A stretch of 64,000 nt of DNA, taken from Escherichia phage kaset. Below the pieces are notes generated by a model, which was given only the letters and a program-made list of their open reading frames with translations, ran no database searches and was not told the origin of the DNA. The stretch is from sequence record PV245935.1. The stretch is one strand, 5' to 3'. Shown piece after piece: positions 1 to 59,023 of the stretch (within the stretch, counting starts at the first letter, position 1; each line of letters opens with the position of its first letter). Both the position numbers and the translations under genes were made by a program.

Positions 1-596
1 AAGGTCTGGAGGGTATTGCGGATTACTACCTGAAAGAAGGTCAGGATGTGGATTTTGACCCTCAAAAAGATTCACGGTCGGTGCAACCGTCTACCCTTCC
101 AAGCGTCAAAGGTAATGTCGTTAACTTACGACACAACGTTGGAAAGATGGACGCAGCATCGTTACCTAAGATGAAGTTGCACGGGCTGATTCTTGGGATT
201 GAGAATCCTCGCAACAGCATCCGTAGAGGGAACAGCCTTGACGGTGAATGGGCAGTCAAGATGCCGCATCACTACGGATTCATCAAGGGCACTAAGGGCG
301 CGGACGGCGATGAAGTCGACTGCTTTGTTGGTCCAAATATGAAGTCGCCGAAGGTCTTTATCGTTAACCAGAACGATAATTACTCTGGCGAGTTTGATGA
401 ACACAAGTGTATGCTTGGATTCGATTCAGCAGAAGAAGCGAAAGAAGCTTATCAAGCATCATTTGGTAACGGTTGGAATGGATTCGACTCAATCCACGAA
501 TTAGATGTGAACTCATTCAAGGAGTGGTTGAAGGGTGATTGCTCTCAAGCATACGGAGCACTCAATAATCCTACTAATTCACCGAAGCAAGGTTGA
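1..596 (+). CDS. Partial CDS (5' end outside window); C-terminal region carries an inorganic-pyrophosphatase-like signature
   Basis: Frame is open from window start into track ORF 48..596; motif YGFIKGT...DGDEVDC fits the family I pyrophosphatase pattern D-[SGDN]-D-[PE]-[LIVMF]-D as I recall it. Confidence 0.5.
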   Translation, partial: GLEGIADYYLKEGQDVDFDPQKDSRSVQPSTLPSVKGNVVNLRHNVGKMDAASLPKMKLHGLILGIENPRNSIRRGNSLDGEWAVKMPHHYGFIKGTKGADGDEVDCFVGPNMKSPKVFIVNQNDNYSGEFDEHKCMLGFDSAEEAKEAYQASFGNGWNGFDSIHELDVNSFKEWLKGDCSQAYGALNNPTNSPKQG

Positions 597-597
597 T

Positions 598-1449
598 ATG
601 GCTTTTAAAGCTTCGAAAAAACGTGAGCGCCGCTCACCCGATAGAATCGGGCGCGGCAGTCCGATAATCCCATCAAACGCTATTGCGATGGCCTACCGTC
701 GTGAGATGAAAGGTCTTTGCTATGCGATGATTGATGACTATCAGGAAGGCATTTCAGAATGGCTTGACAAGAAGCAGGTGCAGAAGTTTTTTGCGCAAGA
801 CTCTGCTGATTCGACATTCCAGACCCTTATGAAACGGCTGCAGCTGAAATGGGCAAAGGCGTTTGCACGTGTTGGGTCGAAGATTGCTGCTGATTTTGTC
901 AAATCGGTCGAAAAGGGTGCCACTTCTGCTACATTCGCCAGCCTTAAGTCCGCAGGCATAGAAGCGCCAAAGGCCACGTACAACAAATTCGTTGAGAACA
1001 CTCTTAGAACAAGCGAGACATTTAACACGACTCTAGTGACCAAGGTCGGCGAGGATATTCACAACAGAGTGTACGAAGCAGTAATGCTTTCACTGACTTC
1101 GCCCGACCCAGCCAAACAAGGCACGTCAGGCATTCAGGCGGCGCTGCGAAACGTCAAACACTTTTCTGCAAAGAGAGTCGATTTAATCGCTAAAGATCAA
1201 ACAAGTAAATTGTATTGCGTTCTAAGCGATGAAAGAATGCGCCAGAATGGAGTTGAAGAATTTGAGTGGGCGCACTCAGGAGCAGGAAAGGAGCCGCGAA
1301 TCTCTCATGAACACGTCGACGGAATGAGATTCAAACTTGATGACAAGCGTCTATGGGAAGTTGGCGGAGAATTGAAGTTCAAAAAGGGCGACATCGGTCC
1401 TCCTGGATGGGCGATACACTGCAAGTGCAGGAAAATACCAATCATTTGA
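598..1449 (+). CDS. Head morphogenesis protein, Mu F / SPP1 gp7-like
   Basis: ATG at 598 overlaps upstream stop (TGATATG); C-terminal R-x-S-H-x-H-x-DG motif (PRISHEHVDGMRF) typical of MuF-like minor head proteins. Confidence 0.7.
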   Translation: MAFKASKKRERRSPDRIGRGSPIIPSNAIAMAYRREMKGLCYAMIDDYQEGISEWLDKKQVQKFFAQDSADSTFQTLMKRLQLKWAKAFARVGSKIAADFVKSVEKGATSATFASLKSAGIEAPKATYNKFVENTLRTSETFNTTLVTKVGEDIHNRVYEAVMLSLTSPDPAKQGTSGIQAALRNVKHFSAKRVDLIAKDQTSKLYCVLSDERMRQNGVEEFEWAHSGAGKEPRISHEHVDGMRFKLDDKRLWEVGGELKFKKGDIGPPGWAIHCKCRKIPII

Positions 1450-1456
1450 GGTCATT

Positions 1457-2377
1457 ATGACGATACCAATCAGCACGTTTCCTCTATCTGGACAAACGCC
1501 AGTATTACCTGCTGTATATGCGAACGGTTTGGCGATTGTTTCAGAATTTACATCCGATAAAAATTTGATTGTTCCATTGAGTCCGCCATTGGCATCTGGA
1601 TACAATTCAGTCGGACAATTCTTTATGATCGGTAATGATGGAGATTCTACCAGCAAACCGAATCTGACCCTTTCAGTCCCCAAAATGAACATAACAGACG
1701 TGCAGACTGGTTTGACTGCATCTACAATCACCATCGCTTTTGGAGAAGCAGTGATTATAGGCATGGAGTCTGGAGGGTCCAAGAATGCTGTCGCCGTTAA
1801 AGTAGTCAAATCCAGCGGCAACCAATACACATTACCAGCAGCAACGGCTTCTGTTCTTGGCGGAGTCAAAATAGGGAGTGGCATAAGCGTTGCAGGTGAC
1901 GGTACAATTAGCGTGACTCAATACTCATTACCGATTGCATCAGCATCAACCTTGGGTGGCATAAAGGTAGGTACGACACTATCAATTGATGGTTCTGGAG
2001 TTCTCAATGCTGCTGCAAGCACTGTGCAGAACGCAAGCAACAGCGTAAGCAATCCTCCGACAACTCTGGTGAATCTGGCAACCTTAAACCTGCCTGCAGG
2101 GAAATGGCTTGTGACAGCAAGTCAGTTGACTGTTGCGACAGAAGGAGTTCAAGCGAATACCGGAATTACAGTCAAACTGTCAACAAGTAATTCAGATATT
2201 ACGGATGATGCATTTACGATGTCAGCTGGCATTCGGGCTGCAGGTCGTTTCGGCGGCAATATTCCAACAAAAATAATTACTCTTGCCGCGCCTGGCAACG
2301 TGTATCTAAACTATCAATGCACAGACGCATTGACATCTACCGTTTACGGACAGATCACCGCAATTAAGTTGAACTAA
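1457..2377 (+). CDS. Structural protein with internal Gly/Ser-rich repeats (decoration or fiber-like)
   Basis: RBS GAGG before ATG; repeated segments LGGVKIGSGISVAGDGTISV / LGGIKVGTTLSIDGSGVL. Confidence 0.6.
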   Translation: MTIPISTFPLSGQTPVLPAVYANGLAIVSEFTSDKNLIVPLSPPLASGYNSVGQFFMIGNDGDSTSKPNLTLSVPKMNITDVQTGLTASTITIAFGEAVIIGMESGGSKNAVAVKVVKSSGNQYTLPAATASVLGGVKIGSGISVAGDGTISVTQYSLPIASASTLGGIKVGTTLSIDGSGVLNAAASTVQNASNSVSNPPTTLVNLATLNLPAGKWLVTASQLTVATEGVQANTGITVKLSTSNSDITDDAFTMSAGIRAAGRFGGNIPTKIITLAAPGNVYLNYQCTDALTSTVYGQITAIKLN

Positions 2378-2387
2378 AGAGGAAGTT

Positions 2388-2525
2388 ATGCAAAAGATTA
2401 TTCAGTCACGTTACGTTAAAGTGCGAAATATTAATTGCAACTCTTTGCTTTCTTGGAAATGGGCTGTTTACGACTCGATGCTGATTGGCGTTTTAGTTGC
2501 TGGAGTGCTTTTTAATATTCACTGA
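2388..2525 (+). CDS. Small hydrophobic protein (45 aa), hypothetical
   Basis: Strong RBS AAGAGGAAG 4-11 nt before ATG; C-terminal hydrophobic stretch MLIGVLVAGVLF; below the ORF-track size cutoff. Confidence 0.4.
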   Translation: MQKIIQSRYVKVRNINCNSLLSWKWAVYDSMLIGVLVAGVLFNIH

Positions 2526-2539
2526 ATCGCCTGGCAGTG

Positions 2540-2835
2540 GATTGCCGCAGGATTTTACGCGTATAATGACGTATCATCCGTATCAAGTAAGTAGTTGTTT
2601 TCAAAAGAATCTTACGGATGATACGGATGATACGCGTTGCCGCGATACTTTATAGGAATTCAAATAAATTAATTTAAAATTATATATCTAATTTAATTTT
2701 ATTTTTTTATAAACTCTTATATATGAAAAGTATCCGTATCATCCGTATCATCCGTAGCACACCAGTGATAGCGCGGCTTATACACCGATACGGATAAAAA
2801 TACGCCTCATTTTATCCGTATCATCCGTATCACAC
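2540..2835. repeat. Iteron-like module A: 9-mer ATCCGTATC arrays in direct and inverted orientation around an AT-rich core
   Basis: Direct copies at 2576-2584, 2732-2756, 2814-2831; inverted TACGGATGA x2 at 2613-2630; AT-rich 2646-2730; homologous to 54601-54890. Confidence 0.7.
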
Positions 2836-2889
2836 TAATTAAGGCGCGGCTATATCGGTTGTTATACATATTCAAACCATAATTATTGT

Positions 2890-2918
2890 TTGCCTAAGTT
2901 TTTTTCATTAGATATAAT
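2890..2918 (+). promoter_or_regulatory. Sigma70-like promoter candidate upstream of the scaffold/capsid genes
   Basis: -35 TTGCCT (2890-2895), 17 bp spacer, -10 TATAAT (2913-2918); ATG at 2942. Confidence 0.4.
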
Positions 2919-2941
2919 ACACAATACTTATTTGAGGGTGG

Positions 2942-4363
2942 ATGCGAATGCAAACGGCACGCGAAATTGACAAAAATGGATTCTTGACGATTGTGGGTTG
3001 TCCCATTTCGTCATTTGGCATTTTTGATTATTCTGCAGGTCAGGTTGGACTTGATGGTGATCCGAATCGCATCGTAAAAGTTTATCGCCCAGAGTCAGCG
3101 GTGAAAGACCCCGAAGCGATAGATTCATTCAAAAATATCCCTTTCATCGACAATCACGAAATGCTTTCTGGATTCGAAGGTGATGAGGATAACACGGCAC
3201 CCGAAGAGTATGGCGTTGATGGAGTTCTAACTGGCAATGTTTATTATGACAAGCCATGGATGCGCGGCGACCTTAAAGTTTTTAGCCGTCGTCTGAAGAA
3301 AGCCATCGATTCTGGAAAGGTTGACTTGTCTTTGGGCTATGACTGTGAATTCATCATACAGTCTGGAGAGTTTGACGGGCAGCCGTATGAAGTGGTACAG
3401 ACAACTCTTCGCGGCAACCACATTGCTCTCGTGGACGTTGGTCGAGTACCAGGTGCACGGGTGCTGGATGGTCGTTGCTTTGACCATCTTTGTTTGACGA
3501 CTGTAACACCATCCAACGAGGATTTAGATATGCCAAAACCGTTAAAAGGTAAAGCGCGTGATAATGCTGTTGAACAGCTGAAATCACTGATCCCTGCGCT
3601 CGAACAATTTCTGAATGAAGAGAGCACCGAAGCTGCTCATCAGGATGAAGTTGAAGTGAAAGCAGAAGAGAAGGATTCAACCGAAGAACGTGAAGAAGTG
3701 ATGGTTGATCCAGAAGTCAAAGCAGAAGCTGAAGAGACTCCAGAAGGTGAAGAGAAGTTTGAAGTTGAAACTGAATCTCACGCTGGTGGCGAGCTTCCGC
3801 AACTGATCAGCCAAATCGAAGCACTTATTGCAAAACTGAAAGGTGGCGCGGTAGGTGATGAAGAAGAAGTTGAAGCCGAAGTCAAAGACGAAGAAGAAGT
3901 TGAAGTCAAGGCTGAAGATGTATCACCTTGCGACAAAGCTGAAGATGTGGTTAGCGGCCTGCAAAACAGCAACGTAAAGGGGGCTTCGGTCGAAAAAGAT
4001 GACAAACCGACAAAAGCGGCGAAAGCGTCGCCAGGTCCAGCAAAAGGGGAACACTCAATGGCATCTGATTCAGCAGTTGCTGCTTTCTACGCTGATTCTG
4101 CTCGTAAGAATAGCCTCTACCAGCGCCTGTCTAAAGTTGTTGGTGCCTTTGATCATGCAACTATGGACTCCAAGTCCGTAGCGAAATATGGCGCTAAAAA
4201 GTTAGGCTTGAAGTGCGTTGATGGCGCTGAGTTTGACGTTGTGGATAACTATCTGCGCGGCGTTGAACACGGTCAAAAACAGCGTGTAGTCGCAAAACAA
4301 AAGGCCGCTGCGGATTCTGCAGCAACTGACGAAGCATTTGAAGCTTGGTTGAAAGGGGAATAA
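2942..4363 (+). CDS. Putative scaffolding / prohead assembly protein with acidic repeat region
   Basis: Lies immediately upstream of the capsid candidate; long E/V/K-rich acidic repeats (EEVEAEVKDEEEVEVKAED); RBS GAGGG. Confidence 0.55.
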   Translation: MRMQTAREIDKNGFLTIVGCPISSFGIFDYSAGQVGLDGDPNRIVKVYRPESAVKDPEAIDSFKNIPFIDNHEMLSGFEGDEDNTAPEEYGVDGVLTGNVYYDKPWMRGDLKVFSRRLKKAIDSGKVDLSLGYDCEFIIQSGEFDGQPYEVVQTTLRGNHIALVDVGRVPGARVLDGRCFDHLCLTTVTPSNEDLDMPKPLKGKARDNAVEQLKSLIPALEQFLNEESTEAAHQDEVEVKAEEKDSTEEREEVMVDPEVKAEAEETPEGEEKFEVETESHAGGELPQLISQIEALIAKLKGGAVGDEEEVEAEVKDEEEVEVKAEDVSPCDKAEDVVSGLQNSNVKGASVEKDDKPTKAAKASPGPAKGEHSMASDSAVAAFYADSARKNSLYQRLSKVVGAFDHATMDSKSVAKYGAKKLGLKCVDGAEFDVVDNYLRGVEHGQKQRVVAKQKAAADSAATDEAFEAWLKGE

Positions 4364-4365
4364 AC

Positions 4366-4983
4366 ATGACTTTCCAAACTAGTGTAGGCCGTCAATATAC
4401 AACTGGCTTTCCTGGCGACATCGTTCGCGACGGCCCACAGCGTGGGAAGCCAGGCCGAATTGCCAACGCTAACGAAGGCGCAAACGTAAACGCCATCAGC
4501 CGTGTGTTCGGTTTTAAGACTGACGTATCCTTAATGGGTACTGGTCAAACCAAAACTTTGGGCGCGCAGGACTTTGAAGTTGAGCTGGGCGGCACTAACT
4601 ACTACGGCATCCTCGGTAATAGCAAGCGTTACGCGCTGTATGGCAACTCTACTGGTCCTTTAGGTGCCAGCATGGTTCTGCCTCAATATAGCGAAGGCGA
4701 GTTTTACGATATGTGCACGGGCCTTGTAGTTGAAGTATTCAACCCAAGCACCAGCCCGCAGACGCTTAACTATGGCGACCTGCTCGCTTATGTACCTAAA
4801 GGCATTTCCGGCGCGAACAACCCGAACAACTTGCCTATTGGCGCAATTATCGCCTATACTGGCTCACTGCCAACTGGCATGGTTGCCATCCCAGGCGGTA
4901 TTGTGATTGACCCGACTGCTATTGCCCTTTCCGGTCCAAGCGTCCAGTCTTCCACTTATACCATTGTACAATTGACTCGTTAA
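4366..4983 (+). CDS. Head-associated structural protein, hypothetical
   Basis: ATG 4366 with RBS GAAAGGGG; sits between scaffold-like and capsid candidate genes. Confidence 0.55.
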   Translation: MTFQTSVGRQYTTGFPGDIVRDGPQRGKPGRIANANEGANVNAISRVFGFKTDVSLMGTGQTKTLGAQDFEVELGGTNYYGILGNSKRYALYGNSTGPLGASMVLPQYSEGEFYDMCTGLVVEVFNPSTSPQTLNYGDLLAYVPKGISGANNPNNLPIGAIIAYTGSLPTGMVAIPGGIVIDPTAIALSGPSVQSSTYTIVQLTR

Positions 4984-39805: not shown

Positions 39806-40651
39806 TTATTCCGCTTGATCACCGTCTTCGGCATCGTCGTTGGATTCAACATCGACAAACTCGATGTGGCCCATCTCTTCCAGCTTGCTCAGGTAGGAGC
39901 GAACGGAAGCGCCAAACAGTTGATCTTTAACTTTTTCGCCCAGCTCATCGATAGACTGCGCCACGCCAACTTCGCCTTCTTTGATCGCCGCTAGAACGCG
40001 TCCACGGGTGGAATGCTCTTGCGGCTGGCTCAGGCCATTGCCAGTGTAGATGAAGTGGGTTGCTTTTGCACGACGCTGACCGTTTGCCTTTTTAGCAGCC
40101 TTACGTTCTGCGATGGCTTTGCGACGTTCTTCAGCTTCTTGCTTACGCTGTTCTTTCTGCTGTTCTGCAGCTTCTTTTGCCGCAATCTTAGCAGCTTCAC
40201 GCTCTGCCTTGCGTTTCGCTTTAGCTTCTTCTTTGGCCTTCTCTTTTTCGGCCTTCGCTGCAGCACGGGCTTGATCACGCTCTGCTTTCTTAGCAGCAGC
40301 TTGTTCAGCTTTCAGGCGCTTGGCTTCTTCTTTAGCCTTTGCCTTTTCGATTTCTTTCGCTGCTTTAGCGGCTTCACGCTCTGCTTTCTTAGCAGCAGCC
40401 TTTTCTGCGCGCTCTTTGGCCTTCTTAGCTGCTTCTTCAGCACGCTTCTGAGCCTTCTCATCAGCAGCCTGCTTGCGTTTCAGTGCAGCTTCTTCACGCT
40501 TGGCTTGTTTTTCCTGCTCACGCTTCTGGCGTTTTTCTTCGGCTTCTTTCTTTTTAGCCAGGCGTTTTTCTTCAGCCACGCGACGACGTTCTGCTGCAGC
40601 TGCTTGTTTTTCTTCTTTAGATAATACTTTGATTGCTTCGGCCATGTTCAC
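39806..40651 (-). CDS. Highly charged Lys/Ala/Glu-repeat protein with globular C-terminal domain
   Basis: About 200 aa of KAE-rich low-complexity repeats (AEEKR, KAKEEAK) then acidic tail; nucleotide-level repeats gcttctttagc. Confidence 0.5.
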   Translation of the reverse strand: MNMAEAIKVLSKEEKQAAAAERRRVAEEKRLAKKKEAEEKRQKREQEKQAKREEAALKRKQAADEKAQKRAEEAAKKAKERAEKAAAKKAEREAAKAAKEIEKAKAKEEAKRLKAEQAAAKKAERDQARAAAKAEKEKAKEEAKAKRKAEREAAKIAAKEAAEQQKEQRKQEAEERRKAIAERKAAKKANGQRRAKATHFIYTGNGLSQPQEHSTRGRVLAAIKEGEVGVAQSIDELGEKVKDQLFGASVRSYLSKLEEMGHIEFVDVESNDDAEDGDQAE

Positions 40652-42475: not shown

Positions 42476-43558
42476 ATGGCTAGTTTAAGAGAAGAAGCAA
42501 AAATAATCGAAGAGTTTTTGACGGAACTCCAAAGAGGCATTCCAGAAGATGAACGCGTCATGACTGTGTTTGCGCCTGAAGCAACGGTGCAGACCGACGA
42601 GCGCGGCAAAAAGATTAACAGCAGCTTCTGGCCTAAGCCTTGGAAGCTTGGCAAGCCGCTGATGCAACATCAGAACGGTTACGCCTGCATAAGTTCAATG
42701 CGCAAGTCTCCCAACCCAAAGACAGGCGAGATGCGATACTGGCGCACGGAATCGGCTTTCGGTCATGGCATGGCAATGATGGTCGACGACATCGGACACG
42801 GTAAAGGGTCAAAGGGCGATTTAGATTTGGAGTTCTTTTTCGAGCGTCTGAAGCCAACCGTTATCGTTGAGACTTCACCGAACAACCATCAGCTGTGGTA
42901 CTTCTTTAAAGAACCGATTGACCATCTTATTCAGTTCAAAGCATTCCTTGGGTCTTTCGTAAACATGGTACTCAAGAAGGGCGGCGACAACACGATTAAA
43001 GACGTGACGCGCGTGGGCCGTGTTCCTGGGTGCATCAACAATAAGCGTGTGACTCACGACGGCCCCTATAAATATGTCGATGAGAACGGCGACCCGTTCC
43101 GCTGCCGACTTGTTCATGCAGACTATTCTTTGCGCTACACAATCGAAGAGATTTGCCAAGCATTCGGTTTCCACGTCGTTATGCCGCAAAAGCGTGAAAT
43201 TCAAATCGACGTTGACGAATACAAATATGACGCTGTTTGGTATAAGATAGCCCAGCAAATCCTTGCGCGCAATAAGATGGGCGAAGGGTCCGATGGCGAT
43301 GTGGTTGAAAACATGTCAGGTAAATGCCGCATCATCTGTCCTTGGGGTGAAGAGCACACCAACGGCGACCCATACGGCGCTTATTTTCGCGGCCCAATCC
43401 CTGGCGCTGAACATGAATTCGTTTTCGGTTGCGCTCACGACTGTCACCGGAAAGGGGAAGGCAAGAAAGGCTGGACCGCTTTTGTTGAAGCAGTAGTCAT
43501 GCCTTATATTGAGAATCAACTTGATATGATAAATCGTCGCGCAGGTGGCATAAAATAG
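42476..43558 (+). CDS. Primase-polymerase (AEP/PrimPol-like) with C-terminal Cys/His cluster
   Basis: AEP-like motifs MMVDDIGHG, SPNNHQLWYFF, RVGRVPGCINNK; CPWGEEH...CAHDCH. Confidence 0.65.
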   Translation: MASLREEAKIIEEFLTELQRGIPEDERVMTVFAPEATVQTDERGKKINSSFWPKPWKLGKPLMQHQNGYACISSMRKSPNPKTGEMRYWRTESAFGHGMAMMVDDIGHGKGSKGDLDLEFFFERLKPTVIVETSPNNHQLWYFFKEPIDHLIQFKAFLGSFVNMVLKKGGDNTIKDVTRVGRVPGCINNKRVTHDGPYKYVDENGDPFRCRLVHADYSLRYTIEEICQAFGFHVVMPQKREIQIDVDEYKYDAVWYKIAQQILARNKMGEGSDGDVVENMSGKCRIICPWGEEHTNGDPYGAYFRGPIPGAEHEFVFGCAHDCHRKGEGKKGWTAFVEAVVMPYIENQLDMINRRAGGIK

Positions 43559-44867: not shown

Positions 44868-46538
44868 ATGTCAATTGAACATGACAATCTTCCAGAGGAT
44901 ACAGGTGATGAATTTGGTGCAATCTTTGACGAAATTCAAGATGCTGGTGTTTCAGAAGAAATGCAAGCGGCAGAGCAGCAAGGCACCAGAGCTAAAATAA
45001 GCCTTCAGCACAAGGCTGTTGAGAAAGATGCAGAGCGCATGGAATGCTACGGTGAAGAAGACTTGGTTGAAAGAGCACGTTTGCTCGCCTCACTTCAGGT
45101 AATCAAGTTCCCTCACTACAAACCGACGAAAGATGATTTTGTTCTTCAGGCGGACCGGACGAGTGACATGAACCGTTATGCGGTTTTCGACGCGTTGTTT
45201 GATAAGGGAAGCGGCATCGTCCCATTCCCTCACAAAGATACTTTTCGTGGACGCTTAGTCGACCATCGCGGCGAAACATTCACCGACCGGACATTGGAAG
45301 TCACAGAGATAGTTGCCGCTGTCGACGCAGCAGGTCTGTCCAACCCAAACTCACGTCAGGTCGCTCAATCCTATAAGGAATGGGCCATGCGTTATCAGCG
45401 CGACGACCTGATGGACTTCTTCTACAAGAAGCTGCCTGAATGGGACGGTACTGCGCGCATTGAAAAATACCTTATCGAGCTATTCCGACCGTTCGATACA
45501 GAGTTAAACCGACAAATCGGTGTGTATTTTTGGCTATCGCTCTATAACCGCCTGACCAATCCTGGCTGTCAAGCGCCAATCTCCATTGCGCTCATCGGCG
45601 GCCAGAACGCAGGGAAGAGTTATTTTAGTAAGCTGCTTTGCGAAGCTATTATGAACGACCGCCACGCAACACCGATTCCGTTGAACTTGGCCGCGCAAAA
45701 CTTCAACCCGTTCTTGCGAGCTATTACGGGTCGCTCAATTATCGCGAACGTTGGCGAGATGACAGGCTTTAAAAAGGCTGACATCGAAAACATGAAAGCA
45801 TTCCTGACTAAGACGGAAGATGACCTGGACTTCAAATTTGAAGATACGCAGGTTAAACCACGCCAGTGGATTGCTATCATGGACGGCAACGAATACGCAG
45901 GCATGCAGCGTGACGATACGGGCAACCGTCGTGTGTATCCTATCTTTGTTGGCCAACTCGCCGACAAGGACGGGCAACCGAACTGGTCTAAAGACTTCCA
46001 AGCTGACCTTTCCACTTTGAAAGAAGACGTTTGGCAGCTGATGGCTGAGTGCGCTGCGTGGATGGAGAAGCACGGCGAAGCAGGTTACAACGCCTTTGTT
46101 GGTGAAACATCTCGTATGCTTACTGAGTTCAGTAAGAACGAAATGGAACGTGCGCGCGGCGTTATCCGTGATGAGATGGTCGACAACGACCTTGTTGAAG
46201 TCATCATCACCGCGCCTTATGACCGACATCACAGCGGACGCTGGCACATCACCAGTGGGGCAATCGCTATGGGATTCAGAGCTAAGTGCGGCAAGTCGCC
46301 TTTCTCACGTACCCTTGCGCCGCACATGTCGAAGCTTGGATTTGAGCCTGCAACCTATCGCAACCAGCGTGGCTACTTTACGCCGCTGATTAAGAATGAA
46401 GCAGGGGAATACATTTCTGACTTGATGACCATCTTAGCGTATCTTATTCGCGACGAGTCTGACCCTGAAGATATTGAATTCTTGAAGAAGGTTATTGAAC
46501 GCAAACGTTCTTTAGGAAGAGATAAGGATGAATTCTGA
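44868..46538 (+). CDS. P-loop NTPase, primase-associated (VirE/D5-like helicase candidate)
   Basis: Walker A IGGQNAGKS; 556 aa; downstream of PrimPol gene. Confidence 0.6.
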   Translation: MSIEHDNLPEDTGDEFGAIFDEIQDAGVSEEMQAAEQQGTRAKISLQHKAVEKDAERMECYGEEDLVERARLLASLQVIKFPHYKPTKDDFVLQADRTSDMNRYAVFDALFDKGSGIVPFPHKDTFRGRLVDHRGETFTDRTLEVTEIVAAVDAAGLSNPNSRQVAQSYKEWAMRYQRDDLMDFFYKKLPEWDGTARIEKYLIELFRPFDTELNRQIGVYFWLSLYNRLTNPGCQAPISIALIGGQNAGKSYFSKLLCEAIMNDRHATPIPLNLAAQNFNPFLRAITGRSIIANVGEMTGFKKADIENMKAFLTKTEDDLDFKFEDTQVKPRQWIAIMDGNEYAGMQRDDTGNRRVYPIFVGQLADKDGQPNWSKDFQADLSTLKEDVWQLMAECAAWMEKHGEAGYNAFVGETSRMLTEFSKNEMERARGVIRDEMVDNDLVEVIITAPYDRHHSGRWHITSGAIAMGFRAKCGKSPFSRTLAPHMSKLGFEPATYRNQRGYFTPLIKNEAGEYISDLMTILAYLIRDESDPEDIEFLKKVIERKRSLGRDKDEF

Positions 46539-53838: not shown

Positions 53839-54287
53839 TGAGTAAACGGCTTATCGCCGCTGGCTGGGCCATACCGAAGTGGGGCCATCGTGCGCATTAC
53901 TTTGACGAAGGAGAAGTGCAAAGCCTTTGTGGTCGCGCAACGTATTTCGGTGATGAGCGCGTCAGCGGCGATTACATCGACTCGCTTTTAGGTAAAGGTG
54001 ATTGCAAGAAGTGCCAGAATATATTAAGAGATATTCTTACGCAAAAAGGATTGCTTGAGCTTGATGAATCGGAAGAAGTGATTGAGCTTAAGCTGGAAGC
54101 AAATTACCTTATTTATACGTTCAAGAACTATTACGCAACTAATATGCGCTCAAAAATGAGCGAGGAAGTAATAGAAAAGGTGTTCACCTACAATCCGCTA
54201 AGGATGAATAAAACTAAATTGAAGAAGTTTAATATAATGTTAAGGAAAGAATTTAAAAGGCTAGGAGTGAAGAATTTTATATTTTAA
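53835..54287 (+). CDS. Hypothetical protein with Cys cluster
   Basis: CGRATYF...CKKCQ motif; last gene before terminator. Confidence 0.5.
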   Translation: MMSKRLIAAGWAIPKWGHRAHYFDEGEVQSLCGRATYFGDERVSGDYIDSLLGKGDCKKCQNILRDILTQKGLLELDESEEVIELKLEANYLIYTFKNYYATNMRSKMSEEVIEKVFTYNPLRMNKTKLKKFNIMLRKEFKRLGVKNFIF

Positions 54288-54303
54288 TAGTGATTAATGT
54301 TAA

Positions 54304-54328
54304 GAGGGCCAATCGGCCCTTTTTGTTT
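54304..54328 (+). terminator. Rho-independent terminator ending the + strand early gene block
   Basis: AGGGCCAATCGGCCCT hairpin followed by TTTTGTTTG. Confidence 0.6.
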
Positions 54329-54600
54329 GCCTGTTGTTTGTGAGTTTTTATTATCGGATAAAGCGATTGATTTGTGTAAATCTATTAGAGGATGGTGGGC
54401 CGTGAGGATTGTGACGTGAATTTTGTGTCTTGAATATGTGTTCGAATTTGGAAGAATATTGTACTGTGGTGCTGTGGGATTGGAGAGGGAATCACTAGGT
54501 TTTGGGGCGTGTACCGTGGTGTGTGGGCCTGTAGGCTGCGCCGTGTCTGGGATTGCCGCTTGAAATTAAAAAGGAGATATAGTTAGCTGGCTAACCTTAC

Positions 54601-54890
54601 GTATAGAATTTAAGCGTATAATGACGTAAGATTTGGACCTATCCGTAGTTCACTCCACACACTTCTATGGTGCGCCGCGACTGGGTTCAATGGTACATCT
54701 TACGGATGATACGGATGATACGCGTCGCCGCTATACTTTATACAACTTTGAAAAAAACAATTAACTCCATTTTGAATTAATTTAAATTAATTTTTTTCTA
54801 CATCCTCATACTTATACTAAAATTATATTTATACGTATTATCCGTAAGATATAAATAAAAACAAAGACTTGCGGCAATACGGATGATACG
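54601..54890. repeat. Iteron-like module B, homologous to 2540-2835
   Basis: Shared GCGTATAATGACGTA; inverted TACGGATGA x2 at 54689-54706; CGCTATACTTTATA; AT-rich core 54721-54850; further copies at 54826-54834 and 54864-54887. Confidence 0.7.
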
Positions 54891-55047
54891 CCATGATACG
54901 CTTCAGCCAGCCAGCAGCGGCTAAGTCATTGATTTGCATAACAAGCGGCGAAAGGGATGGATTTCTTTTATACGTATCAAACAGTACACCACGCACCACG
55001 GTCCATTATTCATTCAGCACTATGATTTATGTACTTTTACAGCCAAT

Positions 55048-55094
55048 TTGAACATCAATCTGCACTTGAATATAATGTTCATTCATTGTATAAT
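55048..55094 (+). promoter_or_regulatory. Tandem sigma70-like promoter candidates upstream of 55129 gene
   Basis: TTGAAC-17 bp-TATAAT (55071-55076) and TGTATAAT (55086-55093). Confidence 0.4.
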
Positions 55095-55104
55095 TCACAC
55101 TATT

Positions 55105-56584
55105 AATTTGCACTATGGGATTTGCACTATGAGTCAAGATTATGTAGCAATGCCTGAAGACTTTGAAGACCCGCGATTTGCAGAGCATAATCAGGCATTA
55201 TTCGATGAGTTCATTGACCTTGTTATTCAGGGCCATGACATGCGCGCAGCTTTTGCACTAGTATTTGGCATGGAGGTTGCGACCGATAACTACACTGGCC
55301 AGCGAATCCTGTGCACGCAACGCAATCCGTACTACAAGATGCGCTACAAAAAGCGTATGGAAGAGATGCCATTGAAGGAATTGTGGAGCGTAAAGAGTTC
55401 CATCCACAATTTAGTGAAGCTTGTGCGTGATCCAGAAGTCGCGGCATCAGCCAAGCTTAATGCCATTCGTGAACTGAATATCATCTACGGCATCACGATG
55501 ATTGATGAAAACGGCAATAGTAAAATGGGCCGTTCCATGGACGATTTCTACAAGGATTTTGGAGAGGCAGCCAAAGAGGGTGAGCAATTCTCCCGCCACT
55601 AGCCAATTTGCACTATAAAACGGCCCTAGAACACATTTTCTCCACTTCTAGGGCCATCGGTAATACGACGGTGAATGCTGCAACCATAAACGCGTTAGAA
55701 AGTGTATTATTATAAGTCATCTTTTAGTCACTTTACGTAACAATTTACGACCTTCCGCCGTCCAGTCGAACGACTCCACCAGCAGATTTGCACTATAACC
55801 TAAGACGATGCGCCCTTTCTCGTTATCGACCCGCCAACAAGTCTCGAATAGCATTCGATTTGCACTATTAACTATCACCGCAACGCGCGTTGGGTAAGCG
55901 CAATTTGCACTATGGTCGTAAAGGGATAAGGTGCGACCACTTCCGATGGACAACGTAGCGATGAGAATGAGTGTGTTCATAAGCCACCAATTTGCACTAT
56001 GAAAAGCGACCCCGAAGGGCCGCCATTCGATTAGATGATCTGGAAGGTGTAGGATTTGTTGCCGAACTCAAAGTTCAAGCGCCCAGCTTCCTTAAGCTTC
56101 ATACGGAAGCGAATGTGCTTGCTATCCGGTAAGCCCAGCGCGGCGAACGCTACGCGGACCGATTTGAACTCGCCTACACCCTCGACCATAACGCCGTTGC
56201 GCGTAAGACGCTTTTGCGCTACTTCCTTGTTGTCCCAACTTTTTGCAATACCTTCGCTATTCGAACGGCGATGGGAAGGAGTTCCATTTTGCACTACGCA
56301 ATTTGCACTATCGTTTAGGCCGCTCTTAACGAAGGCTTCATACTCTTCGTCGGTCATCGCGTCGAGTTCTTCCTGGGTCGGCTCGGCCTTTTTAACGACC
56401 GCACGCGCCTTATGCGTTTTTACATCGCTGGACACTTCCTCGCGCGGCTTCGCGTCGGGGATGGGCGATTCGTTGGACGGCTCATCGAGCGCGTTTAAGG
56501 ACTCGATTAACGCGATTACGCGAGTCTCGGCGGTACGGCGGTCCGCGAACTTTTTAATCGGCTTCGAACCGGAATTTGCATTAT
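55105..56584 (+). repeat. Dispersed same-strand array of ATTTGCACTAT motifs
   Basis: Copies at 55105, 55120, 55605, 55786, 55858, 55902, 55989, 56300; variants at 56286 and 56573; related AATTTGCAGTACACT at 58462 and 58559. Confidence 0.7.
55129..55602 (+). CDS. Hypothetical protein (candidate regulator; ATTTGCACTAT motifs overlap its start)
   Basis: ATG 55129; track N-terminal extension runs through promoter region and is rejected. Confidence 0.5.
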   Translation: MSQDYVAMPEDFEDPRFAEHNQALFDEFIDLVIQGHDMRAAFALVFGMEVATDNYTGQRILCTQRNPYYKMRYKKRMEEMPLKELWSVKSSIHNLVKLVRDPEVAASAKLNAIRELNIIYGITMIDENGNSKMGRSMDDFYKDFGEAAKEGEQFSRH

Positions 56585-56657
56585 AAAATGCAACGAGGTC
56601 GGCGGTCTTAGTTGCGATAACGTCGCCGCTAGTCGAGAAGCGATTTAAGCTAACCAT
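56031..56657 (-). CDS. Hypothetical protein in CpG-rich block
   Basis: 208 aa ORF; CG-rich codon usage distinct from rest of window. Confidence 0.5.
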   Translation of the reverse strand: MVSLNRFSTSGDVIATKTADLVAFYNANSGSKPIKKFADRRTAETRVIALIESLNALDEPSNESPIPDAKPREEVSSDVKTHKARAVVKKAEPTQEELDAMTDEEYEAFVKSGLNDSANCVVQNGTPSHRRSNSEGIAKSWDNKEVAQKRLTRNGVMVEGVGEFKSVRVAFAALGLPDSKHIRFRMKLKEAGRLNFEFGNKSYTFQII

Positions 56658-56737
56658 AATAAACTCCTATTTGTTAGGGCGCTAGGCGCGAAAGAATTTT
56701 ATTAAAGCGCCGCGCACGACGCTCTAAAAATCCTCTC

Positions 56738-57022
56738 TTACGCTTCGACGAGGGAGAAGGTCTCAAATTCTTCTTCGCCCATAACGAGTAAAATATTACC
56801 GATTTCGACCGCTTCGAAGAAGTATCCGTTAACGTTTACTTCGAAGGCTTCGCGGTCCGATTCCGGTAACGCCGCGTAAAGTTTAAAAGCTTCGGCGACC
56901 GTTACCCCACCCGCTTCGATAGTTTGGTCTACGTTCGCGGCGTAGACTTCGGATAAATTTTGTTTTACGCCGTAGTTCTCGACGATAGCGTTACGGATAG
57001 AAGAAACGTTAAGAATAGCCAT
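56738..57022 (-). CDS. Small protein, member of paralog family (with 57655..57945)
   Basis: Shared pattern SEVYAANVDQTIE / ESVYLSNVDAIIE and VNGYF..EIG / INGFV..EIG. Confidence 0.55.
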   Translation of the reverse strand: MAILNVSSIRNAIVENYGVKQNLSEVYAANVDQTIEAGGVTVAEAFKLYAALPESDREAFEVNVNGYFFEAVEIGNILLVMGEEEFETFSLVEA

Positions 57023-57245
57023 TTTAAACTCCTAGTTGGGAGAGGCGTTAACGACCTATTCGTTAACTCATCCCGTCCCGATATGAGTACATTATAATAT
57101 AGTGTAGAAAAAAGTAAAGCACTTTTTCGATAAAAATGCGATAAATTATTTTATCTTTTTTCTTTACTTCTTCGTACACTCGCGTATACTTGTTTATATC
57201 GAGACGGGCGATGGCCTTTCTTCTACTATCATCGGGAGCTTTATT

Positions 57246-57548
57246 ATGACTACTTTAATCTCTTCCATCCTTACTTACGACGAAGACCGTTTAACCGTTC
57301 GCTCTCTTATCGCCGCCGTTAACGCGGAACTAGAATCTAGCGCCATTAAGGTCCGCGCTTTCGTCTTCGCTAGTCTTTCCTTCGACGAAATTAAATACGC
57401 CGAACGTAGCGCCATCCGCTTCGCGAAGACCGACGACGAAGCCGTTACCCTTATCGAGACGGTTACGCCGCGCGGCGAAGCGTTAATTATCGTCGAGTAT
57501 ATCGACGTAGAAGGCGATAAATCTTATAAATATTTTATCGCAGAATAA
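57246..57548 (+). CDS. Small protein, possible distant paralog; flanked by 16-bp inverted repeats
   Basis: Preceded by promoter-like module; inverted repeats GTAAAGCACTTTTTCG (57114-57129) and CGAAAAAGTGCTTTAC (57549-57564). Confidence 0.5.
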   Translation: MTTLISSILTYDEDRLTVRSLIAAVNAELESSAIKVRAFVFASLSFDEIKYAERSAIRFAKTDDEAVTLIETVTPRGEALIIVEYIDVEGDKSYKYFIAE

Positions 57549-57654
57549 CGAAAAAGTGCTTTACTTCTTCGTACACTAAGACTATACTTATTTATATCGA
57601 GAGGGGAGAGGAAGCGAATAGGTCGCTACCCTCCCGACTAACTAGGAGAATATT

Positions 57655-57945
57655 ATGATCACTTTATCCGCTATCCGTTCCGCTCGCGTCGAAACTTCCG
57701 AAAACTCTAACATATTTGGCGAAACCTTAGAGAGCGTTTATCTCTCTAACGTCGACGCGATTATCGAGTCTATTTATGAGCCGATCAACTTCCTCGACCT
57801 TTACAAGTATCGCGACGAGGACATCGTATCCTGCCGCGTAACGATTAACGGCTTCGTCTATACGATTACCGAAATCGGCGGCGAATATATCGCTGTACCG
57901 CAACTCGGCGGAGAAGTGACTTATTTTAAAATCGTCTCCTTATAA
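57655..57945 (+). CDS. Small protein, member of paralog family (with 56738..57022)
   Basis: RBS AGGAGA; preceded by duplicated promoter-like module. Confidence 0.55.
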   Translation: MITLSAIRSARVETSENSNIFGETLESVYLSNVDAIIESIYEPINFLDLYKYRDEDIVSCRVTINGFVYTITEIGGEYIAVPQLGGEVTYFKIVSL

Positions 57946-57963
57946 TACCCTTCCGTTACTAAT

Positions 57964-57990
57964 AGGCCGCGCTTAGTCGCGGCTTTTCTT
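57964..57990 (+). terminator. Rho-independent terminator candidate
   Basis: GGCCGCG-CTTAGT-CGCGGC hairpin followed by TTTTCTTCG. Confidence 0.5.
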
Positions 57991-58642
57991 CGTCCCTATC
58001 TCGATGCGCTTCTCCGCGAAAACTCCTTTATTCTTCCCTTCGTCGTCTCATAATCTTCTTCGAGATGCTCCTTAGTTCGCATAACGGGTATTACGTTAAA
58101 TGGAGAACATCGCGTAAGTCCTTGTTTTATATAGACACCTATATCGGACCGTTAAGGCGGGTCGCGTAAGTCGTTGTTTTATAAAGGCGCAAAACTTTCC
58201 CTTCGTTCCGAACTAAAACGAGAAATATGCGGACCCTTCGCCCGAAAATAGTACGCATACGAAATTACCGACATCTAAAATAATCCCCGCCTATATTATC
58301 CTACACGCAATCATTAGCCTTCGAATCATTATGCTTCATATTATTATGCATCGAATCATTCGCTTTCGAATTGTAACGCTGGAAACTGTAACGGCGATTG
58401 ATTATTGCGTTCGTGTGGTTTTTAGGGCATGGGTCTTTTGGTGCGTTTTGGTACTTGATGAAATTTGCAGTACACTAATCAAAATATGACACATTTGGTC
58501 CACTAACTTTTCAAAGAAAAAGTCCTAGACAGTACCGTACTATTTTGTGCCCACAGTAAATTTGCAGTACACTCCTGCGCGGCAGGCAAAATAAAGGGCC
58601 GCCACAGCGACCCACGATTCACGGTTAAATCAGCAACACCCA

Positions 58643-59023
58643 CTATTCACTCTTATGGGCATCACCAAAGCCATCCGCAATCTGGCTGATCAATGATTCA
58701 ATGGACACAGTTTTACCAATTGATCGAGCGGTAATAGCAAGCATATTATCAATCAAACCATGATTGGCTGCATATGGTCCAGGTTGTGAATCATCTTCAG
58801 AACAACCAAAAAGCTGATCGCGAAGACTTTCAAGAGAACGCTCAATATTTTCCAGCTTCTCTTCTAAATCGGATTGGCGACGTAAAACCCATGTTAAGTC
58901 TCGGTTGCCGACTTCCAACCCATCAGAATCGCAAGCTGGAACGTCAATTTTGATACTGCCACCAAAGGCCATTCCGCTGCCTTTAGTATACGCGTGGTGA
59001 ATAGAATCATTTTTATTCGACAT
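58643..59023 (-). CDS. Hypothetical protein
   Basis: ATG 59023 preceded by AAAGGT; upstream in-frame ATG at 59038 lacks RBS. Confidence 0.45.
   Translation of the reverse strand: MSNKNDSIHHAYTKGSGMAFGGSIKIDVPACDSDGLEVGNRDLTWVLRRQSDLEEKLENIERSLESLRDQLFGCSEDDSQPGPYAANHGLIDNMLAITARSIGKTVSIESLISQIADGFGDAHKSE

Follow-up and report, generated by a model that had tools for sequence, protein, structure and literature searches.

How small terminase subunits recognise viral DNA is a long-standing question. The pac and cosB sites of lambda, SPP1, P22, Sf6 and P1 lie in or beside terS, the gene of the small terminase subunit (TerS), and are often multipartite. In this study, we analysed a 64,000-nucleotide (64 kb) stretch of Escherichia phage kaset (sequence record PV245935.1; hereafter the window), in which an array of the short word ATTTGCACTAT, pointed out in an earlier note made from the letters of the DNA, surrounds a terS gene near one end of the genome. 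We put the probability at roughly 0.5, judging from sequence comparison, that this array is a polar set of TerS recognition sites of the pac/cosB kind, used in exact-end packaging and doubling as the terS operator.

Several described systems resemble this locus in part. In lambda cosB (R1–R3, bound by gpNu1), several short small-terminase sites lie by the cut site at the left end, just in front of the small-terminase gene, and give polarity. There, three or four sites of mixed orientation occupy ~150 bp, with an IHF bend and cohesive ends, whereas the window holds about 11 putative sites in one orientation over 1.2–1.5 kb, spanning terS into opposite-strand genes in a 3.7-kb exact repeat. In SPP1/SF6 pac (pacL and pacR flanking pacC, bound by G1P), clusters of short boxes lie upstream of and inside the start of terS, the TerS is a ring with helix-turn-helix (HTH) domains, and the window likewise has an upstream and a downstream cluster around terS. 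However, SPP1 is a headful packager that is cut between its clusters, with unlike boxes on the two sides in ~270 bp, whereas the window has a single motif and a cut that precedes the first site by 340 bp. P1 pac, another packaging signal in which a single short word recurs many times, has seven TGATCA/G hexamers grouped in two clusters, but it measures 162 bp, is roughly symmetric and is Dam-regulated, while the window motif is 12 bp long, asymmetric and dispersed.

Arrays with other roles were compared as well. Terminal Chi clusters (LLS, P1; PMC12315714) are strand-pure arrays of a short word near a genome end or terminal repeat; the window motif, in contrast, is not Chi, lies on the strand opposite to Chi and belongs to one phage clade rather than being dictated by the host. 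The parC site of plasmid R1 consists of ten 11-bp direct iterons around the parMR promoter, bound by ParR, and shares with the window about ten 11-bp direct repeats around a promoter and, putatively, autoregulation of the adjacent gene, but its iterons are contiguous, phased and used for partition, whereas the window has dispersed copies and belongs to a virulent phage in which no partition genes were seen among the ORFs scanned.

The only studied member of the TerS family concerned is that of Pseudomonas phage E217 (PDB 7UXE), a decameric ring whose gene lies far from terL; according to a review, it did not bind its own DNA appreciably in vitro, no recognition site is known for it or for the Pbunavirus family, and specific DNA binding has been hard to show for most TerS rings (PMC9611059). 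The window shares with E217 the TerS family and fold and a terS apart from terL, but E217 has no array, its TerS reads E-S instead of Q-R at residues 64–65, and the genomes of Pbunaviruses have been described as circularly permuted, with terminal redundancy (PMC12345254).

In the literature searched, we found neither the motif array, nor its cross-genus conservation, nor its link to a TerS residue, and the Wifcevirus papers among it do not mention them; already on record are the terminal repeat, a TerS annotation in one relative, the structure of E217 TerS and terminal Chi clusters elsewhere. If the array is a TerS target, it would be more dispersed and more strand-pure than is usual for described pac/cos signals, embedded as it is in opposite-strand genes, and the first target put forward for the E217-type family; to our knowledge, there is no earlier proposal of a packaging signal for a long-exact-repeat myovirus of this group. 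It offers this family a concrete candidate target, with a 12-bp consensus, about ten natural sites and both bearing and array-free relatives, and makes E versus Q/K/R at TerS residue 64 a candidate specificity switch. BASEL phages Bas98–101 now grow on an E. coli K-12 derivative, and the signal would be of use for phage rebooting, engineering and transduction prediction. Should the array serve something other than TerS binding, it would still be of interest as a strand-pure word that is specific to one clade and interleaves with Chi at a genome end.

A same-strand motif array at the left genome end

The word ATTTGCACTAT occurred in eight exact copies in the window, all on the + strand, at 55106, 55120, 55606, 55786, 55858, 55903, 55990 and 56301 (Table 1), together with a single one-mismatch copy, and no further exact or one-mismatch copy was present on either strand in the 64 kb. 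Five close variants (55093, 55251, 55326, 56287 and 56574) join the exact copies in 55093–56584. In 100 dinucleotide-preserving shuffles, matches with at most one mismatch numbered 1.69 ± 1.23, and nine or more were never reached (0/100). A two-mismatch search added the + strand sites at 55093, 55251 and 56287 as well as both AATTTGCAGTACACT words. The degenerate pattern [ATC]YYG[CT]ACTA matched 11 times in 55107–56302 (~0.1 expected), compared to two + strand and three − strand matches in the remaining 63 kb. Successive array members were spaced by 14, 131, 74, 281, 180, 72, 45, 87, 297 and 14 bp.

These results bear out the claim of the earlier note that the array is same-strand and far beyond chance, and a count on both strands of the 64 kb places all exact and one-mismatch copies in 55106–56584 on the + strand. 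The copies that it described at the ribosome-binding site and ATG of the gene at 55129, the tandem TATAAT boxes upstream, and the copies in intergenic DNA and antisense to − strand open reading frames (ORFs) were all found in the sequence. Its sites were right, although five start coordinates were one base low, the preceding A having been counted in. One of its two one-mismatch variants, at 56574, stood; the other, given as 56286, is TTTTGCACTAC at 56287, which differs from ATTTGCACTAT by two mismatches or a 1-nt insertion and is a good match to the family consensus. The word that it called related, AATTTGCAGTACACT, does occur twice as described, but without the G[C/T]ACTA core in register, and its kinship to the main motif is unproven.

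The window belongs to Wifcevirus, E. coli myoviruses such as ECML-117, WFH and Mansfield, and its region 54000–59000 was matched by 28 phage records at 93–97% identity. Wifceviruses are virulent (PMC11990801). The terminal repeats of WFC and WFH were reported as ~3.7 kb (PMC6563267), and for Mansfield, PhageTerm predicted a direct terminal repeat (DTR) of 3,673 bp, at which the record was opened (PMC6753283). We placed the DTR by mapping the Mansfield record MK903282 (PhageTerm DTR 1–3673) onto the window; the WFH record ends at its right boundary, and the SP13 and Ro157lw records start at its left boundary. The first exact copy lies 337 bp from the left boundary, and the array extends from +338 to +1,543 of the left genome end (to +1,816 if the 56574 variant is counted); as part of the DTR, it is also duplicated at the right genome end.

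The gene inside the array encodes an E217-type small terminase

Pfam returned no match for the 55129–55602 ORF. Its product matched E217 TerS (7UXE, ten chains) in a phmmer search (E = 9e-33, residues 3–147), and a profile of the 70-member family matched 7UXE at E = 6e-60. The AlphaFold model had a predicted local distance difference test score of 72 (about 85 at residues 10–80) and contained helices 22–33/38–46 and 88–100/106–119 and strands within 123–133, that is, the fold expected of a TerS, with an N-terminal helical/HTH part, two long oligomerisation helices and C-terminal beta strands. Foldseek with this model gave 7uxe_A as the only significant PDB neighbour (E = 4.6e-6, probability 1.0), followed by the PaP3 and NV1 TerS. 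The Mansfield annotators had earlier called the gene a small terminase via HHpred. By homology and modelled fold, the gene is a bona fide small terminase and not a transcription regulator, and its product would form a ring oligomer acting with TerL, whose gene is outside the window, in packaging. Since the gene neighbouring the array encodes TerS and the array lies at the left DTR end, packaging or end biology is the context to which it points. Of the earlier proposal of operator sites for an autoregulated regulator, the idea of protein-binding sites, probably for the product of this gene, is supported by position and by comparative data, and two copies are placed to autoregulate the gene, which encodes TerS rather than a regulator. 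The exact copies at 55106 and 55120 occupy about +5 to +29 of the second of two tandem terS promoters, and two further motif-like words lie in frame inside terS, at 55251 (AFALV codons) and 55326 (TCCGTACTAC, NPYY codons).

The array is conserved around terS in distant relatives

We examined TerS homologues with 41–70% identity, comprising eight metagenomic loci (L003, L004, L005, L006, L030, L033, L034 and L039) and the Pantoea phages PA1 and Kyle (Kylevirus). The results showed that all ten loci, from about eight further lineages, carried a same-strand array around terS, with 8–17 copies in ~0.9–1.2 kb, in DNA that could not be aligned with the window. Summed over the ten loci, [ATC]YYG[CT]ACTA matched 124 times on the + strand and once on the − strand. 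The Kyle record starts at the genome end and includes both repeat copies; its terS starts at 357 and its array spans 474–1475, which is the geometry of the window, with terS and the array ~340–360 bp from the experimentally inferred left end, inside the DTR. A cluster at the terS start, like that at 55093–55130, was present in L003, L005 and L006, and terS was the only gene embedded in the array in every lineage. A scan of IMG/VR returned Wifceviruses only, and a metagenome scan yielded one new lineage, L030.

A logo of 90 sites read R-A-T-Y-Y-G-C/T-A-C-T-A-Y, with a purine at position −2 in 77 of the 90 and A at position −1 in 69 (T in 20, C in none), both positions being outside the search pattern; nothing else was conserved in the logo, either further upstream or downstream of the motif. 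Because only these two flanking positions are informative, the site is compact, asymmetric and ~12 bp long, as expected for one HTH.

The terS NPYY codons (55326–55335 in the window, at the homologous position in all relatives) form a full consensus site, AATCCGTACTAC, in bearers, and those of E217 terS (position 3693 of its locus) form the near-site AACCCGTACTAC. By analogy with pac inside the terS of P22 and Sf6, the array may have started from this site and spread.

Presence of the array tracks TerS residue 64

The array was missing in 11 lineages of the same family, namely E217 (Pbunavirus), Serratia MTx, tabernarius, FoX7, BcepF1, Salmonella PCSE1, Aeromonas Gekk3-15 and the loci L035, L036, L037 and L038. 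In the TerS alignment, within the segment A-[IL]-x-x-N-P-Y-Y, all bearers had Q, K or R at residue 64 followed by R65, whereas the 11 non-bearers had E (once D) followed by S, A, F, H or R; three of the non-bearing lineages, with E-R, were as near to the window TerS (44–49%) as bearers were. The rule for residue 64 was stated before seven further loci were examined and was right in 7/7, with an array in 3/3 K/Q-R loci and none in 4/4 E-x loci, although only two of the K/Q-R loci count as independent because L039 is near-identical to PA1. Presence or absence of the array thus tracked residue 64 across 20 lineages with DNA; no altered motif paired with an altered TerS was found among them. In the model, residues 64–65 end helix 56–65, just before the basic helix 67–79. 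This covariation of the array with a charge switch in aligned TerS sequences is suggestive. Array-bearing genera with mapped ends (Wifcevirus, Kyle) have exact DTRs, which, set beside the permuted genomes of Pbunaviruses, agrees with a sequence-specific signal that occurs only in phages with sequence-specific ends.

Other repeats were seen near terS in array-less relatives: three 22-bp direct repeats, AAAAAATAAGCATGCTTTGTA, in MTx (965–1090 of its locus), a 39-bp direct repeat present twice in a CA-rich stretch in E217 (3190–3268), and seven AAATATCG words on both strands in PCSE1 (360–720).

The DNA word rather than the encoded peptide is selected

Several copies lie antisense within genes on the − strand. 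In the 87-aa ORF at 55717–55980, the three antisense copies encode YSAN, NSAN and HSAN, and in the 208-aa gene at 56031–56657, the 56287/56301 pair falls in a variable acidic linker and encodes VVQN and DSAN. The 208-aa gene is real, with 36% identity to E217 gp79; no sequence relative of its product was found in the PDB. Read in reverse complement, the motif has a TAG in one of its frames, and copies occupy the two others. Among orthologues of the 87-aa protein, only the NSAN position was conserved, and the other copies moved between lineages. Since orthologous positions gain and lose copies and both frames free of stops are used, selection acts on the DNA word and its number in the zone, not on the encoded peptides. 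A coding by-product was rejected on the grounds of the intergenic copies and the two reading frames.

The array as a proposed small-terminase recognition module

We propose the following mechanism, in which both TerS as the binder and packaging as the purpose of binding are inferred. TerS, by homology with E217 a ring of about ten subunits with N-terminal HTH domains, would bind asymmetric 12-bp RATYYG[C/T]ACTAY sites flanking its own gene, 0.34–1.8 kb inside the left DTR end. About ten sites in one orientation over ~1 kb would label the DNA as phage and set the polarity of the terminase complex, which would then cut at the exact repeat boundaries and package. In Wifcevirus, the sites downstream of the terS promoter, over its ribosome-binding site and ATG, may let TerS throttle its own synthesis, and those over the start of terS in L003, L005 and L006 may likewise act as an operator. 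Like pac and cosB, the array lies in and beside the small-terminase gene near a physical genome end, and its asymmetry, with one strand used per lineage, can give polarity.

Several observations weigh against this proposal. The predicted second HTH helix (residues 38–46) is not specially conserved among bearers, unlike the DNA motif, and E217 TerS reportedly bound DNA to no appreciable extent in vitro (PMC9611059). The spacing is irregular, from pairs 12–15 bp apart to gaps of up to 600 bp, unlike wrapping around one ring, and the sites lie 0.3–1.8 kb from the cut site, farther than in lambda or SPP1. Among eight Wifcevirus genomes (95–98% identity), motif columns were variable in 8/88 cases compared to 164/1512 in the surroundings (P = 0.38), a comparison of low power; in ECML-117, two copies are gone because part of the linker of the 208-aa gene has been replaced, and a point change affects one copy in Mansfield, so that single copies are dispensable. 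Autoregulation is not universal, because PA1, L030 and Kyle have no copy over the terS start. In the 11 array-less lineages, k-mer enrichment with a strand test gave no convincing replacement motif; what it returned were Chi-like words (in MTx, L037 and possibly L036) and some unrelated repeats. MTx, moreover, lacks the array although its repeat is exact (3,566 bp) and its terS lies at 377. Finally, the covariation with residue 64 is confounded by phylogeny, because bearers form one clade.

Some of these points would suit a different binder. The sites may bind another clade-specific phage protein, such as an early regulator or an organiser or protector of DNA ends that coats the left DTR and represses terS and the convergent genes. 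The array covers four strong sigma70-driven transcription units of early type in the DTR, several small DTR proteins have no recognised function, and the unremarkable conservation of the TerS HTH helix and the E217 binding result would then be accounted for. However, neither the DTR nor its surroundings yielded a candidate binder with a DNA-binding domain, Pfam and PHROGs searches of the DTR genes giving nothing informative; terS alone is invariably within the array across lineages, the neighbouring 200-aa gene is also present in array-less E217, and the presence of the array tracks the TerS residue switch. We regard another binder as rather unlikely.

Host Chi sites interleave with the array in most bearers

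In most bearing relatives, 5–9 Chi sites, all on the strand opposite to the motif and none on the + strand, were interleaved with the array in ~2 kb. By the orientation logic of PMC12315714, these Chi sites are active for RecBCD entering the left genome end. Wifcevirus retains a single Chi and L003 none; the two arrays are therefore separable, because these phages kept the motif while losing almost all Chi. The motif itself is unrelated to GCTGGTGG and was rejected as a form of Chi. In PA1, L030 and Kyle, one Chi lies within the terS promoter spacer.

Because of this interleaving, the motif could be a polar word for a translocating enzyme (Chi- or KOPS-like, read by a helicase-nuclease or the packaging motor), paired with opposite-strand Chi so that each end presents an oriented array. 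The near-absolute strand purity across lineages, the abutment of some sites on Chi, the fact that the motif strand is the 3′-ending strand in the right-end DTR copy, and the RecD-like and SNF2 helicases encoded by the phage all agree with such a role, and terminal Chi clusters are a known phage strategy (PMC12315714). A host enzyme as reader, however, predicts the motif in the enterobacterial relatives MTx and PCSE1, where it is missing; Wifcevirus and L003 retain the motif with Chi almost all lost; and known polar signals are spread over long distances, not within 1 kb at one gene. We know of no response of E. coli RecBCD to the motif sequence. A polar word of this kind seems to us quite unlikely. 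A wider form of the idea is a two-strand "polarity code" in the DTR, with host Chi on one strand and the phage word RATYYGCACTAY on the other, which a moving terminase motor (guided by TerS) or a helicase-nuclease would read as FtsK is guided by KOPS, coupling end protection, repeat-to-repeat recombination and packaging direction; this is speculative and, in our judgement, unlikely.

Replication, transcription and partition

Short direct repeats in one orientation also recall replication origins, and P4-type iterons are short and irregularly spaced. The phage primase/helicase might accordingly use the array as iterons or as priming sites, in the manner of P4 ori/crr with its dispersed 8-bp iterons, and terS lies just downstream of the primase/helicase genes in several relatives. 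Against this, E217, L038 and tabernarius share the primase/helicase module and yet have no array, the nearest replication gene in the window, that of the helicase, is 8.6 kb away, no AT-rich unwinding element or DnaA boxes lie alongside, the spacing is unlike that of phased iterons, and an origin gives no reason for sites over the terS start codon or for tracking of a TerS residue. An origin is therefore very doubtful.

The earlier note had also suggested a phage-specific promoter family or centromere/iteron-like sites, and neither suggestion is supported. With its ATTT start and CACTAT(g/a) ending, the motif resembles SP6/K11 promoters, and its copies are all co-oriented, as in a family of shortened SP6/T7-type ...CACTATA promoters. 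The window, however, encodes no single-subunit RNA polymerase (every ORF above 600 aa being structural or DNA polymerase III alpha), and a Pfam scan of 38 ORFs detected neither an RNA polymerase nor a sigma factor. The motif lacks sigma70 −10/−35 elements (no −10 with A at position 2 in register), and a sigma70 scan matched only upstream of terS and at 57091–57588. If the copies were promoters, there would be eight of them within 1.2 kb, most directing antisense transcription of − strand genes; nothing is conserved downstream of the motif, and the motif is missing from the other 60 kb of genes. A promoter family is highly improbable. As for a partition centromere (parC/parS/sopC), no ParA/ParM or ParB/ParR domains were seen in the DTR genes or the other ORFs scanned; the irregular spacing and the virulent nature of the phage also speak against centromere or iteron sites.

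Further candidates were tried and rejected. Lambda-type integrase arm sites (C/AAGTCACTAT) share only the CACTAT tail, and no integrase was found among the ORFs scanned. A sigma54 promoter would place GG 10 bp upstream of the TTGCA that is present, and there is none; DnaA, IHF, NtrC and TrpR sites gave partial half-site likeness with no dyad partner. An RNA-level element is at odds with copies on differently transcribed strands, and nick sites of the T5 or tf type occur genome-wide in those phages and are not clustered.

Table 1. Features of the window, with motif copies and Chi arrays at the terS loci of relatives (positions in relatives are those of each locus)
Feature	Position	Strand	Remarks
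RepB-like primase	42476–43558		
VapE-like helicase	44868–46538		
Direct terminal repeat	54769–58438		3,670 bp; left physical end 54769; from records of mapped relatives
Tandem terS promoters, near-consensus sigma70	55048–55076; 55066–55094	+	TTGAAC-17-TATAAT; TTGAAT-17-TATAAT; 10/12 matches each
Upstream cluster	55093–55130	+	Variant ATTCACACTAT at 55093; exact copies 55106–55116 and 55120–55130 (latter includes terS ATG)
terS, E217-type small terminase subunit, 157 aa	55129–55602	+	phmmer, profile, AlphaFold/Foldseek
Exact copy	55606–55616	+	4 nt 3′ of terS stop codon
GC-rich hairpin GGCCCTAGAA...TTCTAGGGCC	55622–55655		Between convergent terS and − strand genes; terminator annotation in WFH record
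Single Chi site GCTGGTGG	55776–55783	−	Abuts motif copy at 55786
Three exact copies (55786, 55858, 55903)	55786–55913	+	Antisense to ORF 55717–55980 (−)
Exact copy	55990–56000	+	Intergenic, between the two − strand genes
Pair 14 bp apart	56287–56311	+	TTTTGCACTAC at 56287, exact copy at 56301; antisense within gene 56031–56657 (−)
One-mismatch copy ATTTGCATTAT	56574–56584	+	Antisense to conserved FYNAN codons of 208-aa gene; membership doubtful
Two AATTTGCAGTACACT 15-mers	58462–58476; 58559–58573	+	24 and 121 bp outside right DTR boundary
Array, L003		+	10 copies
Array, L004		+	10 copies
Array, L005		+	11 copies
Array, L006		+	12 copies
Array, L009 (PA1)		+	17 copies
Array, L030		+	8 copies
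Array, L032 (Kyle)		+	12 copies
Array, L033		+	15 copies
Array, L034		+	12 copies
Array, L039		+	17 copies; essentially identical to PA1
Chi array, L004	323–1824	−	
Chi array, L005	411–1836	−	
Chi array, L008 (MTx)	179–1276	−	
Chi array, L009 (PA1)	3361–4933	−	
Chi array, L030	1625–3322	−	
Chi array, L032 (Kyle)	255–1972	−	
Chi array, L033	2857–4060	−	
Chi array, L034	2890–4127	−	

Other features of the terminal repeat

The hairpin between terS and the convergent − strand genes is probably a bidirectional terminator. At the DTR boundaries, ATTAACTCCA meets TTTTGAA on the left and CATGGGTCTTT meets TGGTGCGTTTTGGTACTT on the right, and these boundary sequences are kept in a relative with 70% TerS identity. 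Repeats of ACGGATGATACG or GATACG flank the left boundary on both sides (54690–54905 in the window; 5480–5830 in L003). Just inside the right boundary, GAATCATT-like repeats with a 15-bp period were observed (58318–58400 in the window; nine copies at 3385–3605 in L006), which could be a boundary element or an injection/packaging-stop element.

The right half of the DTR (56500–58500) is a compositional island in which the observed/expected CpG ratio is 1.9–2.3, compared to 1.13 in the whole window, and TCGA is frequent; this suggests a different origin or constraint of its small early genes. Three near-identical strong promoter cassettes, TTTACT-16/17-TATAAT or TATACT, lie at 57091–57118 (−), 57163–57190 (+) and 57560–57588 (+) and drive divergent small DTR genes. 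With these cassettes and the terS promoters, the DTR looks like an immediate-early module read by host RNA polymerase. ECML-117 has, 3′ of the second small + strand DTR gene, an extra 70-aa ORF annotated as "transcriptional regulator" (3596–3805 of its locus), which has no counterpart in the window. Away from the DTR, an AT skew of −0.40 over 40.0–40.7 kb arises from a K/A/E-rich low-complexity ORF at 39806–40651 (−), probably a coiled coil.

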